Shown here: piece by piece, positions 19,192 to 51,607 of the stretch
Numbering within the stretch: the stretch's first letter is position 1
Layout of the letters: each line of letters starts with the position of its first letter
DNA from: an uncultured Candidatus Saccharibacteria bacterium
Lineage (GTDB): Bacteria; Patescibacteriota; Minisyncoccia; UBA6257; 1-14-0-10-44-23
Assembly: GCA_964549935.1 (NCBI GenBank)
Contig: CAZJVT010000001.1
Span: forward strand, 27,922-91,921
Reading direction: 5' to 3'
DNA length: 64,000 nt
Translations under genes and position numbers: made by a program
The notes under the pieces: generated by a model
The model's input: the letters and a program-made list of their open reading frames with translations, nothing else
The model's database searches: none
What the model was told of the DNA's origin: nothing

Positions 19192-19326
19192 CTAGACGGT
19201 AAGCTTCTTGCGACCCTTACGGCGGCGAGCCTTGAGAACGCGCTTTCCATAGATCGTACGACTGCGCTTTAAGAAGCCATGGGTTCGTGCGCGCTTCTTC
19301 TTTTTAGGCTGGTAGGTTTTACTCAT
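19192..19326 (-). CDS. rpmH: 50S ribosomal protein L34
   Basis: [44 protein letters not shown]. Start placed at the internal Met of the longer track ORF. Confidence 0.85.
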
Positions 19327-19403
19327 ATATTTGTTTCGTTCTATGGTACAAGAAAAAAAATAAAATTGCAAGGGCTTGTTATAAAAAAACAACTCGACTA
19401 TAG

Positions 19404-19412
19404 TTATGCACA
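19404..19412. promoter_or_regulatory. DnaA-box-like 9-mer TTATGCACA upstream of dnaA
   Basis: Matches TTATNCACA in the AT-rich region between rpmH and dnaA. Confidence 0.4.
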
Positions 19413-19503
19413 CCTCGTCCACAGATTATGCAAGAAAGGGAGTTTGACGGGACCCGCAGTGCAACTAGAATTAAGTTTAAATAAATTCGCTCCTCTATTT
19501 CTT

Positions 19504-20928
19504 ATGAATTACAACGACGACGCACTCGTACAAGCAACTGTTTCTTCGCACAACGAAGAACCGATGGACGATGCATCGCTCGAACGCTTGTGGCTGTCGG
19601 CTCTTGGAGAGATTGAGATTCAGGTTTCACGACCCAACTTTGTAACCTGGTTTAAAAACAGCCGCTTCCTGCAGAAAAAGGGGAACCTGGCTTGCGTCGG
19701 ACTACCGAACACCTTTGCGAAAGAATGGATTGAAAACAAGTATTCGAAAGTAGTCCTTGGGGCTTTGCGCAACCTGGAGCAGAGCATTATGAAGGTTGAG
19801 TTCGTCGTCGTCGGAAGCAAGGGGGCGCCGGTTAAGGCCCGCCCGGCTATGCCGCGCGCAGAGGAGAGCCAGATGGCCTTCCCGGAGTTCCGTATCGACC
19901 CGGAAACGGGACTTAACCCGCGCTACTCATTTAAATCCTACGTCGTCGGCAAATCCAACGAGCTCGCCTACGCTGCAGCAACGGCCATCGTCGAAGACAT
20001 CGGCAAGAAATACAATCCGCTCTTTATTTATGGCGGCGTCGGCCTCGGCAAGACCCACTTGATGCAGGCGCTCGGTAACGAAATCGCTGCGAAGTACAAC
20101 AACAAGGTCCGTGTGAAGTACACCCCGGCGGAAAAGTTCACCAACGACGTCATCTGGGCAATTAAAAACAAGCGGATGGACACGATTAAGGAGAAGTACC
20201 GCCTTATCGACGTGTTGATTCTCGATGATATCCAGTTCATCGCCGGCAAACAGGCGACCGAAGAGGAGTTCTTCCACACGTTTAACGCGCTGCACGAAAA
20301 CAACAAGCAAATCATCATCTCGTCAGACCGCCCGCCGAAATTTATGCCGGATCTGACCGAGCGCCTACGCTCCCGCTTCGAAGGGGGCATGATTGTGGAT
20401 ATTAGTTATCCAGACTACGAACTCCGCTACGCGGTTCTCAAGACCAAGGCCCAGGAGCGCAACTTGAACCTCCCGGACAACGTCTTCGACCTGCTCGCCA
20501 ACAAGATTCAGCGCAGCCTGCGCGAACTAGAGGGCATCTTAAACAAGATCCAATTCCACCAGCGGGTGAAACAGGTTGAGATAAACCCTGCTGTTGTCGA
20601 AGAGATCCTGGCTGAGATCCTCCAGGAGCCTGTCCGCAGCATCAACCCGAACGTTGTCATCAAGGCCGTAGCGGACTCGTTCGAAATCTCAATCGTCGAA
20701 ATAACCGGCGCTTCCCGCAAGCGGGAATTAGTTGGTCCGCGCCAGATTGCGATGTTTTTGCTCCGCGACATGCTGGATCTTTCATACCCAAATATCGGTG
20801 ACCGCATGGGTAAACGCGACCACACCACGGCTTTGTACGCCTACGAAAAGATTGCGCAGGAGATAAATAAGAACCAAGCGCTCAACCAAAAGATATTAAC
20901 AATCAAGGAGTTAATAACTAAAGAATAA
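19504..20928 (+). CDS. dnaA: chromosomal replication initiator DnaA
   Basis: GGVGLGKTHLMQA Walker A, LILDDIQF box, and C-terminal DNA-binding domain (RQIAMFLLRDM...DHTT). Start at MNYNDD. Confidence 0.9.
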   Translation: MNYNDDALVQATVSSHNEEPMDDASLERLWLSALGEIEIQVSRPNFVTWFKNSRFLQKKGNLACVGLPNTFAKEWIENKYSKVVLGALRNLEQSIMKVEFVVVGSKGAPVKARPAMPRAEESQMAFPEFRIDPETGLNPRYSFKSYVVGKSNELAYAAATAIVEDIGKKYNPLFIYGGVGLGKTHLMQALGNEIAAKYNNKVRVKYTPAEKFTNDVIWAIKNKRMDTIKEKYRLIDVLILDDIQFIAGKQATEEEFFHTFNALHENNKQIIISSDRPPKFMPDLTERLRSRFEGGMIVDISYPDYELRYAVLKTKAQERNLNLPDNVFDLLANKIQRSLRELEGILNKIQFHQRVKQVEINPAVVEEILAEILQEPVRSINPNVVIKAVADSFEISIVEITGASRKRELVGPRQIAMFLLRDMLDLSYPNIGDRMGKRDHTTALYAYEKIAQEINKNQALNQKILTIKELITKE

Positions 20929-21144
20929 GTGTTAATAAGTAGGTCTCGCCTGTGGATAGAAAAGGGGAGTAAAAAGAAAAGTAGAATTCATCCACATTAT
21001 TACTCACGTAGTTCACTTCTCTCTCCACAGAAAATTTCCCTTGTGAGAATCCTAAGAAGCGCCGTATAATCAAGTAAGAAGAACTCTCAGTAAAACTTAT
21101 CCACCAATTCCACAGCCTCTTCTATTACTACTGTTTCTTTATTT
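20929..21144. promoter_or_regulatory. probable oriC (dnaA-dnaN intergenic) with clustered DnaA-box-like 9-mers
   Basis: TGTGGATAG (20951-59, reverse), TCATCCACA (20988-96), CTCTCCACA (21021-29) and TTATCCACC (21097-105), each within 1-2 mismatches of TTATCCACA, plus an AT-rich tail before dnaN. Confidence 0.5.
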
Positions 21145-22257
21145 ATGAAATTAATAATACTTAGGAGCAACCTGAAAGAAGTACTCTCGTCTGTGGAAAG
21201 AGTGGCTACCGACAACCCGACACTACCGGTTTTAAAGCATGTTGTTTTACGAGTTGATACTCGACTGACGATTCAGGCGACGAACTTAGAGATTGGGATT
21301 ACGGCGGTCACAAGTGCAAAAATTACTGAACAGGGTAGCTTGTCGGTGCCGTTTGCGCCGCTCTATAGCATTATTACTAACAGCACGAGCGATCGTATCG
21401 TGCTCGAATCAACCGAAAACACGCTCACTGTCGCGACGGATAACTATCAGGCGAAGATTCAGGGGATGTCTGCGGATGAGTTTCCGATCATTCCGAAGCT
21501 TCAAGACGAGTCTAATAGTATCGAGGTTTCAACTGATTCATTTAAGACTGCACTGATGCAGATTATTAGTGCCGCCGCCACCAACGACTTCAAGCCAGAG
21601 CTAAATGCGGTTCTTTTACATCTTTCTGCCGGTGTTTTAAAGCTTGTAGCGACTGACGGATTCCGCCTAGCCGAGAAGACATTTTCGACTAATGCTTTCG
21701 GCACGACAATCCACGACGAAGTGAAGGCACTTATCCCTCTTAAAACGGTCCAGGAGGTGATGAGAATCTTCCCAGCGGGCGAACAGCTCTCAATCGCGTT
21801 CGACGCGAACCAGGTCCTTTTAAAGGCCAAAGACACCGCCCTTATCAGCCGCCTCATCGACGGCAACTATCCGGAGTACGCCGCGATTATTCCGAAGACG
21901 CTCACAACCGAACTTTCTATCGAGCGCGACCAACTTGCCAATGCGATTAAGCTCGTGAGTAACTTTTCCGGCAAAACGAGCGACATCGTCGCCAAGATTA
22001 ATGACGAAGCTAAGTCACTGGAGATTTTTGCCTCCAGCCAACTACTCGGCGAAAACGCCTACCAGGTTCCTATTAAGAAAAAGAAGCTTGAGGGTATTAG
22101 CAAGGCGACGTTTAACTGGAAGTATCTACTCGACGCCGTTAAGGCGATGCCGGATCCGACCATTACCATTGGTATGACAGGGGAGACCCGCCCGGTAGTG
22201 ATTAAGTCCGGCGGCGACGATTCGATTTTCTACGTGGTGATGCCGATACAAGCTTAA
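21145..22257 (+). CDS. dnaN: DNA polymerase III beta sliding clamp
   Basis: 370 aa following dnaA. N-terminus MKLIILRSNLKEVLSSVERVATDNPTLPVLKHVVLRV is typical. Confidence 0.85.
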   Translation: MKLIILRSNLKEVLSSVERVATDNPTLPVLKHVVLRVDTRLTIQATNLEIGITAVTSAKITEQGSLSVPFAPLYSIITNSTSDRIVLESTENTLTVATDNYQAKIQGMSADEFPIIPKLQDESNSIEVSTDSFKTALMQIISAAATNDFKPELNAVLLHLSAGVLKLVATDGFRLAEKTFSTNAFGTTIHDEVKALIPLKTVQEVMRIFPAGEQLSIAFDANQVLLKAKDTALISRLIDGNYPEYAAIIPKTLTTELSIERDQLANAIKLVSNFSGKTSDIVAKINDEAKSLEIFASSQLLGENAYQVPIKKKKLEGISKATFNWKYLLDAVKAMPDPTITIGMTGETRPVVIKSGGDDSIFYVVMPIQA

Positions 22258-26692: not shown

Positions 26693-28380
<1,688 letters not shown>

Positions 28381-28384
<4 letters not shown>

Positions 28385-28410
28385 TTAGTAGACAGTAGAT
28401 AGTAGACAGC
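28381..28410. repeat. heptamer array (GTAGNNA)x4 + GC at the pilB stop
   Basis: gtagttagtagacagtagatagtagacagc. The first TAG is the pilB stop codon. Confidence 0.55.
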
Positions 28411-28819
28411 ATGGGGCGGGGGCAAGCTGATAAAAAGCAGGAGAGTTTTTGTAATGAAATAAAAGGTAGCTCGGCTTTTTTCCTAGGGAGTAGCGAAAGA
28501 TGCCTCCAGGCGTCGAGTCTGGTGCTCTTCTGATGTTCTATGAAGCCCTGAAGACCGGAGCGGGAGCTCCGCAGTTCAGAGAGCTAGAATTTTTTAATAG
28601 AATATAAAAAGCCGCGCGGATTAACCTCTGTGCGGCCTCCCTACAAATAGAAACAACAATTAGGAGTTAGGAGGCAGGAGAAGTAGCAGCAAGGCAAAGG
28701 CATTTCGGGCGCTCTATAAGCTATCCACAGGTTATCCAGTGTGGTGCTTTGACATATTTTCCGCGTGATATACTAATTTCACGTTTTGATGACCTCTACC
28801 ATTATAGAGGTAGGGGGGC

Positions 28820-28848
28820 TTGACAAATAGGTAGATTGGTGCTATACT
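28820..28848 (+). promoter_or_regulatory. consensus sigma70-type promoter TTGACA-17-TATACT
   Basis: TTGACA at 28820-25, a 17-nt spacer, and TATACT at 28843-48. Confidence 0.45.
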
Positions 28849-28895
28849 GTATCTTAGAAGGGGTGCGCTACGTACCCTTACTACTTTGTTCTTTT

Positions 28896-29064
28896 AAAAC
28901 CGCATAGTAGTGGGCAAAATGGAATGACCCGTTGAATTGGACGACTTGGCTCCGGCTGGGGCGCTCCTCAACTTTATTCTTGGTTTCTTTTTAGATTTTC
29001 TAAGAAAGAACTTTTTATCAGTTTCCTCCCCAGGTGCTGATTTTGCCCACTACTATGCGGTTTT
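28896..29064. repeat. 169-bp element bounded by perfect 25-bp inverted repeats (MITE-like or long closing helix of a structured RNA)
   Basis: AAAACCGCATAGTAGTGGGCAAAAT (28896-28920) is the exact reverse complement of 29040-29064. The interior holds further palindromes. Confidence 0.55.
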
Positions 29065-29227
29065 GCATTTGCGAGGGCCTTCGCAGAGATGCTCGAATTT
29101 CTCAAGAACGGCAGGGGAACCTTTTACTGCCGTCTATGAGAAATTCGGGCATCTTCGATTTTTGCGCAAATGCAAAACCGAAGTCGTAGCGGTTCTGCGA
29201 TTGCGCTATCGGCGCAGCGCGGAAGGT

Positions 29228-29252
29228 AGCCGCCTTTGGCGGCTTTTTATAT
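29228..29252 (+). terminator. rho-independent terminator
   Basis: agccgccTTTggcggct hairpin followed by TTTTTAT. Confidence 0.5.
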
Positions 29253-29294
29253 TTGGTGCTTTTGGGAGAGAAGCTATATACTCAAGTTACGAAT

Positions 29295-30314
29295 ATGGCT
29301 GAAAAGAAGCTTAAGCAAGACAACGGGGAGCCCATTGATGACCGCGCCATAGACGTTATTTTGCGCCCAAGTAGCTGGGACGAGTACGTCGGGCAGGAGA
29401 AGGTCAAAAAGAACCTGCGCGTCATTTTGCAGGCTGCTATGCAGCGCGGTGAGAGCTGCGACCATCTGTTGTTTTTTGGTCAGGCCGGACTTGGCAAAAC
29501 GACGCTGGCCAACTTGGTCGCGCGCGAACTTGGCGCAAATTTAAAAACGACCTCCGGTCCGGCGATTGAAAAAATGGGTGACCTCGCCGCTGTGCTGACC
29601 AACCTTTCGAAAGGGGACGTATTATTTATCGACGAGATCCACCGCCTGAACCGACTCATCGAAGAGGTTTTGTATCCGGCGATGGAGAGTCGTAAACTCC
29701 ACCTGATTGTTGGTAAGGGCCCAGGCGCGCGGACAGTCACGCTCGACCTGCCACCGTTTACTTTAATTGCGGCGACGACACGGCCAAACTTAATTTCTGC
29801 GCCGCTACGTTCGCGTTTTGGCGCGACCTTTAAACTTGATTATTACGAGCAGCCGGACATCGAGCTCATCGTAAAACGCAGCGCGAAGATGTTTGATTTA
29901 AATATTAGCCCGGAGGCACTTCAGATTATCGCCGAGGCCTCGCGCTTCACGCCGCGTACGGCCAACAGATTGCTGCGCCGCGTGCGCGACTACGCGCAGG
30001 TACATTACAAGGAGTTGATTGACGCTGATGCTGCGCAGAAGACGCTCGAGATGTTGGAGATTGATAACCTGGGGCTTGAGCCGCACGACCGCAGAATTTT
30101 AGAAGTACTCATCGACAAGTTCCACGGTGGACCGGTCGGGCTCTCGACGCTGGCCGCGGCATTTAACGAGGACAAGGGGACTATTGAGGATGTGTACGAG
30201 CCGTACCTGATGAGCATCGGACTCCTCGTTCGCACACCGTCAGGACGACGCGCAACCGAGAAGGCCTATGACCACCTGGGTAAGTTAGATGGCAATCAAC
30301 CAAAGCTTAGCTAG
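29295..30314 (+). CDS. ruvB: Holliday junction branch-migration helicase RuvB
   Basis: LRPSSWDEYVGQEKVKKNL, Walker A GQAGLGKTTLA, Walker B DEIHRL, and a C-terminal winged helix. Confidence 0.9.
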   Translation: MAEKKLKQDNGEPIDDRAIDVILRPSSWDEYVGQEKVKKNLRVILQAAMQRGESCDHLLFFGQAGLGKTTLANLVARELGANLKTTSGPAIEKMGDLAAVLTNLSKGDVLFIDEIHRLNRLIEEVLYPAMESRKLHLIVGKGPGARTVTLDLPPFTLIAATTRPNLISAPLRSRFGATFKLDYYEQPDIELIVKRSAKMFDLNISPEALQIIAEASRFTPRTANRLLRRVRDYAQVHYKELIDADAAQKTLEMLEIDNLGLEPHDRRILEVLIDKFHGGPVGLSTLAAAFNEDKGTIEDVYEPYLMSIGLLVRTPSGRRATEKAYDHLGKLDGNQPKLS

Positions 30315-51176: not shown

Positions 51177-51279
51177 GTGTAGACCTCGAGTATGTGACAT
51201 TGCTTGCGAGTCGCTTGTCGAAGCGGTCGCAGCTGTAAAGAGCATTTCGCAAAGCTCCTTGCAGCTGCGACCTATTTGA

Positions 51280-51607
51280 GGTGGAGTTGGGGATATCGAA
51301 ATCCCGTCCAAAAGTTTCTGCAATAACAGTCTACAAGCTTAGGATCGAAACAAGTTCGAAGCGAATGAACTCTAAGTTTTAGTGATGCGCGTAGAGTTCA
51401 ATCGGCGCATCCTTATTCCCAGATATAACACCAGTATTCCGACTATGGGAAGTTATCGGACTGATGGCTTACGCTAGGCGTAGGCTAAAGCAAAATTGCT
51501 CTGACGAGTAAAGTTGGCAGTTTATGATTTTTGGATCAGATTTACGAGTTAATCCTGCTCGGCTTGCATGTTATTACAAAGAACGATTGTCGAAGCCTGG
51601 CAACCCC
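51280..51607 (-). ncRNA. ssrA: tmRNA (ssrA)
   Basis: Minus-strand 5' GGGGTTGCCAGGCTTCGACAATCG... and 3' ...GGACGGGATTTCGATATCCCCAACTCCACC. G3·U70 acceptor pair, T-arm GGATTTCGATATCC. Tag reading frame GCC AAC TTT ACT CGT CAG AGC AAT TTT GCT TTA GCC TAC GCC TAG at 51518-51474. Immediately downstream of smpB. Confidence 0.7.

Follow-up and report, generated by a model that had tools for sequence, protein, structure and literature searches.

The orphan structured non-coding RNAs (ncRNAs) brought to light by comparative genomics of the Weinberg/Breaker type, with raiA, Clostridiales-1 and Bacteroidales-1 among their motifs (two survey papers, PMC5737381 and PMC11109978), are stand-alone genes of 150-250 nt that possess their own promoter and terminator, a multi-helix fold supported by covariation, a distribution restricted to a single lineage and no assigned function. 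The element analysed here, situated between a pilB-type ATPase gene and ruvB in a 64,000-nt stretch of contig CAZJVT010000001.1 from an uncultured Candidatus Saccharibacteria bacterium (assembly GCA_964549935.1, contig positions 27,922 to 91,921; this whole stretch is hereafter called the window), is alike in all these respects. It differs in matching no model of Rfam 15 and in being found in every examined genome of a lineage described as highly streamlined. We consider it very probable that the element is a single-copy, independently transcribed structured ncRNA gene that belongs to no catalogued family, and it appears to be specific to a Saccharibacteria/Patescibacteria lineage. That it constitutes a new RNA family of a familiar kind, the orphan structured ncRNA, is well supported; RNAs of this kind are all but unexplored in the lineage.

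Other described systems resemble the element in part. Like 6S RNA (ssrS), it is of similar size, its two ends form a long closing helix, its promoters are strong or in tandem, and growth state is plausibly linked to it; unlike 6S RNA, it has a compact four-way junction with no central bubble, and no Rfam similarity to that family. With Y RNA/YrlA it shares a long terminal stem closing a multi-branched, cloverleaf-like domain, whose junction strands of about 3, 6, 5 and 0 nt resemble the tRNA pattern, but no T-loop was seen and neither the YrlA model of Rfam nor ARAGORN recognized it; no Ro/Rsr (TROVE) gene was present among the called neighbours within 10 kb in any locus. The near-perfect closing duplex of 23-25 bp, followed by a U-run, is comparable to intrinsic terminators and to RNase III stalks such as the stems flanking rRNA, and its outer half likewise evolves freely while its pairing is kept, whereas the inner 9-10 bp are invariant in sequence, which would be needless in a simple stalk. 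Miniature inverted-repeat transposable elements (MITEs) provide the last comparison: like them, the element is short, has no coding function and carries inverted repeats (of 25 bp) at its boundaries, but it is single-copy and orthologous, its conserved promoter lies outside the repeats and its arms covary as RNA.

Bacteria of the CPR (candidate phyla radiation), also called Patescibacteria, have genomes that are tiny and densely coding. The genome of TM7x is 94% coding, and the lineage has been described as highly streamlined in a transcriptome preprint that reports no validated small RNAs for TM7x (10.1101/2022.03.25.485537). Literature searches on 6S RNA, structured RNA and RNA motifs in Saccharibacteria or Patescibacteria returned no description of the present RNA. 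In term searches, the two survey papers named above proved to mention no motif linked to ruvB or to the pilB-ruvB gap, and the only TM7 motif that these searches found is lysM-TM7, a cis-regulatory element. Presence in every genome examined, a core more conserved than the neighbouring genes and a near-consensus promoter make it likely that the RNA matters to the biology of these episymbionts.

Conservation and genomic context

Related loci were collected from contigs carrying RuvB homologues of falling identity and by a metagenome scan with an invariant 23-mer. The resulting sample comprises 15 distinct genomes of one lineage, the window included, with RuvB 72-100% identical, and the element sits in the gap between pilB and ruvB in every one of them. 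A search of representative genomes from 185,579 species with a 21-mer taken from the arm found a single locus (L001), in a Candidatus Saccharibacteria metagenome-assembled genome syntenic with the window; the RNA core is ~95% identical between the two and both arms are 100% identical, while the DNA of pilB and ruvB is 77-80% identical. With a covariance model built from 12 of the 15 sequences, each locus gives precisely one hit, and the rest of the window gives none.

Immediately upstream of the RNA, a promoter of the form TTGACA / 16-18 nt / TGnTATAnT is present in 15/15 loci, whichever way the gene is turned. The RNA shares the strand of ruvB in four loci (the window, L001, L002 and L016) and is turned the other way in the remaining 11, always together with its promoter, and at least two inversions of the RNA gene have taken place among the 15 genomes. 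Since its orientation varies and the promoter is its own, the RNA gene is a self-contained unit, neither a leader of ruvB nor a trailer of pilB.

The features that a previous sequence-only reading had pointed out in the window were recovered throughout. The 25-nt inverted repeat (28896-28920 / 29040-29064) is perfect, and the promoter, of the sigma-70 type, with TTGACA at 28820-28825, a 17-nt spacer and TATACT at 28843-28848, agrees with the consensus at 11 of 12 positions and carries a TG extension. The terminator consists of a hairpin at 29228-29244 followed by TTTTTATATTT, and the additional hairpins pair 29087-29114 with 29127-29154 and 29058-29073 with 29165-29180. The region from 28385 to 28927 is indeed the longest in the window that is free of open frames reaching 100 codons; the remainder of the gap is overlapped solely by a spurious 121-codon TTG frame (28937-29302), which has no Pfam hit. 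No frame is open across the homologues, which differ by indels of 1 and 2 nt. The start of ruvB, the neighbour named in that reading, is at 29295 and not at 29294. The reading had left the choice between a structured ncRNA and a MITE undecided, and the former is now strongly supported: promoter, fold and terminator are kept at orthologous positions in 15 genomes, with abundant covariation. Coordinates of all features are collected in Table 1.

Table 1. Features of the RNA locus and of the origin region, in window coordinates
Feature	Position	Strand	Remarks
dnaA ORF (open reading frame)	19279-20928		Assigned by position and synteny with L014-L016
dnaN ORF	21145-22257		Assigned by position and synteny with L014-L016
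pilB-type T2SSE ATPase gene	26693-28384		Left neighbour of the RNA locus
DnaA-box-like site 1	28721-28729	+	CTATCCACA; 1 mismatch to TTATCCACA
DnaA-box-like site 2	28732-28740	+	TTATCCAGT; 11 bp from site 1
Distal promoter (Pdist), extended -10	28766..28774	+	TGATATACT; no good -35; putative activity
Proximal main promoter	28820..28848	+	TTGACA-17-TGcTATACT; 11/12 matches plus TG
5' leader hairpin	28859..28879	+	Predicted in the window fold; lineage-specific, sequence-variable
P1 5' strand (5' arm)	28896..28920	+	Inner GUGGGCAAA invariant or nearly so; outer 14 nt covary
P2, long irregular arm	28922..28979	+	Base GGAAUGA/UUAUUC
P2a	28931-35/28968-72	+	Within P2
P2b	28939-43/28962-67	+	Bulged C28964
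P3 hairpin	28982..29012	+	5' strand all pyrimidine, 3' strand all purine
P4	29017..29041	+	AUCAG(Y)/(R)CUGAU, 5-6 bp; 13-nt C-rich loop UUCCUCCCCAGGU
P1 3' strand (3' arm)	29040..29064	+	With U-rich tract, predicted intrinsic terminator of the core RNA
H2 accessory hairpin	29058..29189	+	~120 nt; apical loop GGGGAACCUUUUA
H3, short GC-rich hairpin, and canonical terminator	29190..29252	+	Terminator 29228-29244 plus T-run
ruvB	start 29295		Right neighbour of the RNA locus

Secondary structure and covariation

The predicted fold is a four-way junction of helices P1 to P4. RNAalifold, applied to 12 sequences, returned 55 pairs, 20 of them compensatory. With the base of P2 added, the model comprises 61 pairs, and 95% of the alignment cells hold standard pairs, against 41-52% after the 3' partners have been shifted along the alignment by 1-3 columns. 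Changes on both sides occur in 22 of the 61 pairs, compared with 11.8 +/- 1.8 in shuffled alignments, none of 500 reaching 22; such shuffle statistics overstate significance for related sequences, and the slid-partner control, which is fairer, is clearly passed. The folding energy of the longer segment 28855-29255 in the window (-186 kcal/mol) is likewise far below that of shuffled sequences (-118.6 +/- 5.5 kcal/mol; z = -12.3).

P1 (helix 1 of the model) contributes 23 pairs, 10 of which have changes on both sides, and 95% of its cells are paired. The innermost 2 bp of the inverted repeat (28919-28920 / 29040-29041) are able to pair inside P4 instead, and P1 is therefore counted as 23-25 bp. 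Its outer ~14 bp covary freely, as illustrated by GCAUAGUAG/CUACUAUGC in the window, which is replaced by AUCGGUUAG/CUAACCGGU in L004, and the inner pairing GUGGGCAAA/UUUGCCCAC is invariant or nearly so. Perfect complementarity of the arms is restricted to the window and L001; elsewhere the DNA complementarity of this helix is 73-96%, and it contains G·U pairs, mismatches and compensatory substitutions.

In P2 (helices 2-4), nine pairs show compensatory changes; between the window and L001, C-G is exchanged for U-A and A·G for G·A. All sequences retain the tandem U·G/U·G/G·U pairs in the apical hairpin of this arm, CUUGGC-UCCG-GCUGGG. P3 (helix 5) is paired in 95% of cells, with two double-change pairs and many replacements of U-A by U-G. 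The stem of P4 is invariant in most sequences, with a single covarying pair (C-G / U-A / U-G), and the core of its loop, CCCAGGU, is invariant in 15/15. Not one unpaired nucleotide separates P4 from P1 in the model, and for this reason the two helices probably stack coaxially.

The strand of the RNA can be fixed on two grounds. Read from the complementary strand, the invariant G·U pairs would turn into A·C mismatches, and the covariance-model scores are 93-198 bits in the sense direction, that is, on the promoter strand, against 23-47 bits for the antisense.

Predicted transcript ends and a probable clade-specific 3' extension

Transcription is predicted to start near 28855. Relatives with a long leader carry there a hairpin different from that of the window, and in those with a short leader P1 begins 10-20 nt past the -10 element. 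Right after the 3' arm of P1, most loci have a run of 5-7 U, within U-rich tracts such as UUUUUAUUUU and UUUUUUUGUUU, and P1 together with this run would double as an intrinsic terminator in most genomes, yielding an RNA of ~180-215 nt. In the window the arm is followed merely by UUUU-GCAUUU, and the weakness of this U-run makes read-through past P1 likely there. The transcript of ~390 nt proposed earlier is accordingly possible for the window genome, whereas in most relatives the RNA is expected to end just after P1.

Read-through in the window would probably produce a second isoform of ~390-395 nt that takes in the hairpins H2 and H3 and the terminator at 29228-29252, and the latter would also insulate the ruvB promoter. 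An equivalent terminator, GGUAGCCGUUGCACGGCUUUUUUU, exists in L001. H2 is confined to the clade formed by the window, L001 and L002, in which its apical loop GGRWACCUUUUA is kept, and it comprises 37 pairs, 12 of them compensatory among only three sequences. At its base, the final 7 nt of the 3' arm of P1 (CGGUUUU) are used a second time, paired with AAAACCG at 29174-29180, and this base is followed by a degenerate 5'-arm copy at 29174-29189. The direct repeat of AAAACCG (28896 / 29174) is accounted for by pairing with the same 3' arm, not by target-site duplication.

The H2 block has been rearranged in L002, where it lies reverse-complemented upstream of the promoters and the RNA retains its own 3' arm and U-run. 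The segment concerned (2455-2582 in L002) contains an additional copy of the 5' arm next to the reverse-complemented H2; across 35 nt, a length greater than that of the native P1 in that genome, it shows 91% complementarity to the 3' arm of the RNA. The segment appears to be what remains of an inversion or duplication mediated by the arms. Taken together, the rearranged block and the inversions of the gene suggest that the arms are recombinogenic. Flanking inverted repeats were rejected as a general mechanism of inversion, since they are seen only as a 15-nt repeat in the window and as the arm copy in L002, and the other loci have none.

The flanking repeat of the window is a perfect 15-nt inverted repeat, AATATAAAAAGCCGC / GCGGCTTTTTATATT, at 28601-28615 and 29239-29253, which brackets the whole RNA cassette. 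Its two halves belong to terminator-like hairpins facing one another and occur in the window genome only; they may represent an insulating terminator pair or an inversion substrate. Five other loci (L004, L005, L008, L013 and L014) have long imperfect hairpins of 100-200 nt between the RNA terminator and pilB, with no sequence similarity to H2. These may be clade-specific 3' extensions in their own right, or bidirectional terminators serving the convergent pilB and RNA genes.

Upstream module and the replication origin

Some 70 nt upstream of the main promoter lies a putative distal promoter, whose extended -10 element (TGnTATA(C/G)T) is found at the same relative position in nine loci. It had been missed by the consensus scanner because the latter needs a -35 element. 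The two DnaA-box-like sites of Table 1 form a pair, TATCCACAG(G/C)TTATCCA, that is located 44-46 nt upstream of the distal -10 in nine loci (the window, L001, L002, L004, L005, L006, L008, L009 and L011) and in looser form in L015. To judge from these motifs, DnaA may bind at the paired boxes.

The replication origin itself likely resides at dnaA-dnaN (19279-22257), ~8 kb from the RNA locus. Five DnaA-box-like sites are found there between 20394 and 21105, and the cumulative GC skew reaches its minimum at ~18-22 kb. An oriC at the RNA locus was considered and ruled out by this minimum and by the DnaA-box cluster at dnaA-dnaN (~20.4-21.1 kb).

Comparison with catalogued RNA families

At gathering thresholds, Rfam 15 finds only a transfer-messenger RNA (tmRNA) and one tRNA in the whole window and nothing at the RNA locus. 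Relaxing the search to E values up to 10 in three divergent homologues (the window, L014 and L017) produced no consistent weak match, only scattered ones: ylbH at 28 bits, Atu_C8, which merely reflects a terminator, and assorted noise from small nucleolar RNA and microRNA models. ARAGORN reports nothing tRNA-like at the locus. The earlier failure to recognize signatures of RNase P RNA, signal recognition particle (SRP) RNA or tmRNA is thus upheld by Rfam, which has no matches to them in the region. The universal cores by which these RNAs are recognized (CR-I/CR-V of P4 in RNase P RNA, the GNAR loop with AGCA in domain IV of SRP RNA, the tRNA-like domain and tag ORF of tmRNA) are all absent. 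The RNA core, at 170 nt, is too small for a bacterial RNase P RNA, and inspection of the sequence by eye showed neither GGAAAGUCC nor ACAGAA. The tmRNA gene is situated elsewhere in the window, at 51279-51607 on the minus strand, and matches RF00023 over its full length with 105 bits.

Three minor observations belong here. ARAGORN missed the tmRNA at 51279-51607; the gene may be atypical or permuted, or the tool may simply have overlooked it. The match to the ylbH leader (28602-28716, plus strand; 28 bits, where the gathering score is 50; E = 0.0011) is probably spurious; the matching stretch is not conserved in L001, where a minus-strand ORF fills the equivalent space. The RNase P protein gene rnpA is found near dnaA in L015 and L016.

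Possible function and alternative explanations

What could be the role of an RNA retained so consistently in these genomes? Granted that the element is a structured ncRNA gene, the role that we favour, at somewhat less than an even chance, is a housekeeping one: the RNA would be stable and abundant and would act in the form of a particle with bound protein. A housekeeping role is suggested by the presence of the RNA in every examined genome of a lineage described as streamlined, by the near-consensus promoter with its extended -10, by the location ~8 kb from the dnaA-dnaN origin region, and by sequence invariance that reaches into Watson-Crick helices, beyond the needs of folding. In such a particle the invariant inner P1/P4 stack, the P4 loop CCCAGGU and the apex of P2 would offer the recognition surfaces. 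The outer 14 bp of P1 would act only as a terminator and, probably, as a processing stalk for RNase III. In the closer relatives, the distal promoter and the two DnaA-box-like sites would couple expression of the RNA to DnaA and growth status. A more far-reaching reading, which we hold to be possible rather than probable, is a hitherto unrecognized housekeeping ribonucleoprotein RNA of the Saccharibacteria type (CPR/Patescibacteria), with a cloverleaf-like four-way junction, DnaA-wired expression and a cellular function so far attributed to no RNA of such minimal cells. Such an RNA would join rRNA/tRNA, tmRNA, SRP RNA and RNase P RNA as a fifth near-universal stable RNA of the lineage. The covariance model, the secondary structure and the predicted ends make the present RNA a defined target for study.

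Several observations weigh against the explanation as a structured ncRNA gene with a housekeeping role, or limit its reach. The 15 genomes represent one lineage, so that few of the sequences are effectively independent (the effective sequence number of the model is 1.36). A putative pseudoknot between CCCAG of the P4 loop and CUGGG of P2 is invariant on both sides, and an all-against-all column scan for tertiary or pseudoknot covariation was too noisy at 15 related sequences. The ends of the transcript are predictions from sequence. The neighbouring genes give no functional clue, the whole region from dnaA to murC being syntenic in the lineage. Finally, 5 of the 15 loci, the distant ones, have no DnaA-box pair or no clear one.

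The main functional rival, unlikely in our view, is a trans-acting base-pairing small RNA (sRNA). In sRNAs of the RsaE/RoxS type, C-rich loops bind mRNAs at Shine-Dalgarno or other G-rich regions, and the P4 loop of the present RNA (UCCCCAGGU) could do the same, the remainder of the molecule serving as a stabilizing scaffold. This loop is single-stranded in the consensus fold and has the invariant core described above; in close relatives it holds the anti-Shine-Dalgarno pentamer CCUCC, and the gene has its own predicted promoter and Rho-independent terminator. The pentamer is not universal, however, being replaced by CUCCCC or CCCCC in distant members, and no site complementary to the loop beyond chance was found in the 64 kb of the window. 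Invariance extending over three helices, together with a 25-bp closing stem, also exceeds what is usual for an sRNA built of a seed and a scaffold.

It is improbable that the RNA serves this lineage as a functional counterpart of 6S RNA or Ms1 that binds RNA polymerase and tunes transcription by growth state. Its length of ~180 nt, the long stem that brings the 5' and 3' ends together, and the tandem promoters, one of them putatively linked to growth through the DnaA boxes, would all suit such a role; the ssrS gene of Escherichia coli also has tandem promoters. What speaks against it is that no Rfam 6S match appears at E up to 10 in the three divergent homologues, and that a four-way junction with strands of 0-7 nt lacks the rod shape of 6S RNA and the large central bubble, between closing and terminal stems, that could mimic an open promoter.

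Still less probable is a role primarily at the level of DNA, with transcription incidental, whether as a segment that inverts, as a cruciform or as a site titrating DnaA in connection with the nearby origin. The DnaA-box pair present in ~10 of 15 loci, the proximity of the dnaA-dnaN origin, the repeated inversion of the cassette during evolution, and the bracketing of promoter-containing segments by the arm copies in L002 and by the 15-nt inverted repeat in the window can be read in this way. A cruciform, however, requires both strands to fold, whereas the invariant G·U pairs, which are A·C on the other strand, make the structure strand-specific; promoter and U-run always flank the same strand; and there are just two DnaA boxes, with none or none clear in five loci.

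We regard a cis-regulatory leader of ruvB, whether riboswitch or attenuator, as highly improbable. In the window the RNA does lie directly upstream of ruvB on the same strand, and the competition of P1 and H2 for the 7 nt CGGUUUU is reminiscent of alternative pairing. The RNA is nevertheless turned against the ruvB strand in 11 of the 15 genomes, and it flips relative to both neighbours, whereas a riboswitch would keep a fixed position and orientation upstream of its gene. A full terminator stands between the RNA and ruvB, and 13 nt ahead of its ATG ruvB carries a conserved TATACT box of its own. This box (29277-29282 in the window, the ATG being at 29295) is accompanied by no Shine-Dalgarno sequence, and ruvB appears, from its sequence, to be nearly leaderless; the same CTATA(TA)CTCAAG box precedes ruvB in L002, L005 and L006.

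The idea that the element is a MITE, or some other mobile element of recent insertion whose ends are the 25-bp inverted repeats, is scarcely credible: the perfect complementarity of the arms in the window and L001, the variable orientation and the additional arm copy in L002 would fit it, but the repeat has no further copy in the window even at 3 mismatches (chance expectation 0.00), the 21-mer of the arm is met at one locus in 185,579 species genomes, blastn against phage and plasmid collections gave no match, the same gap is occupied in 15/15 genomes, the arms covary like an RNA helix, G·U pairs included, and the promoter is conserved along with the arms in spite of lying outside them. The invariant 23-mer has no match in viral contigs; the single viral contig matching a looser pattern (L018) holds a chance 20-mer and is negative with the covariance model. 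The locus may serve as a cautionary case, in which a perfect 25-bp inverted repeat represents the closing helix and terminator of an RNA, not the ends of a transposon.

Other features of the locus

Two observations concern the neighbours of the RNA gene. ruvB is followed in the window and in most relatives by a gene for a small protein with a lamin-tail domain (PF00932; 30317-30859 in the window), which is absent or unannotated in L011 and L012. At the other side, the stop codon of pilB coincides with tandem 14-nt repeats, AGTAGTTAGTAGAC / AGTAGATAGTAGAC, at 28380-28407, which bring TAG stops in several frames, and a related repeat, AGGAGTTAGGAGGC, is located at 28662-28675, 268 nt downstream of those at the pilB end.

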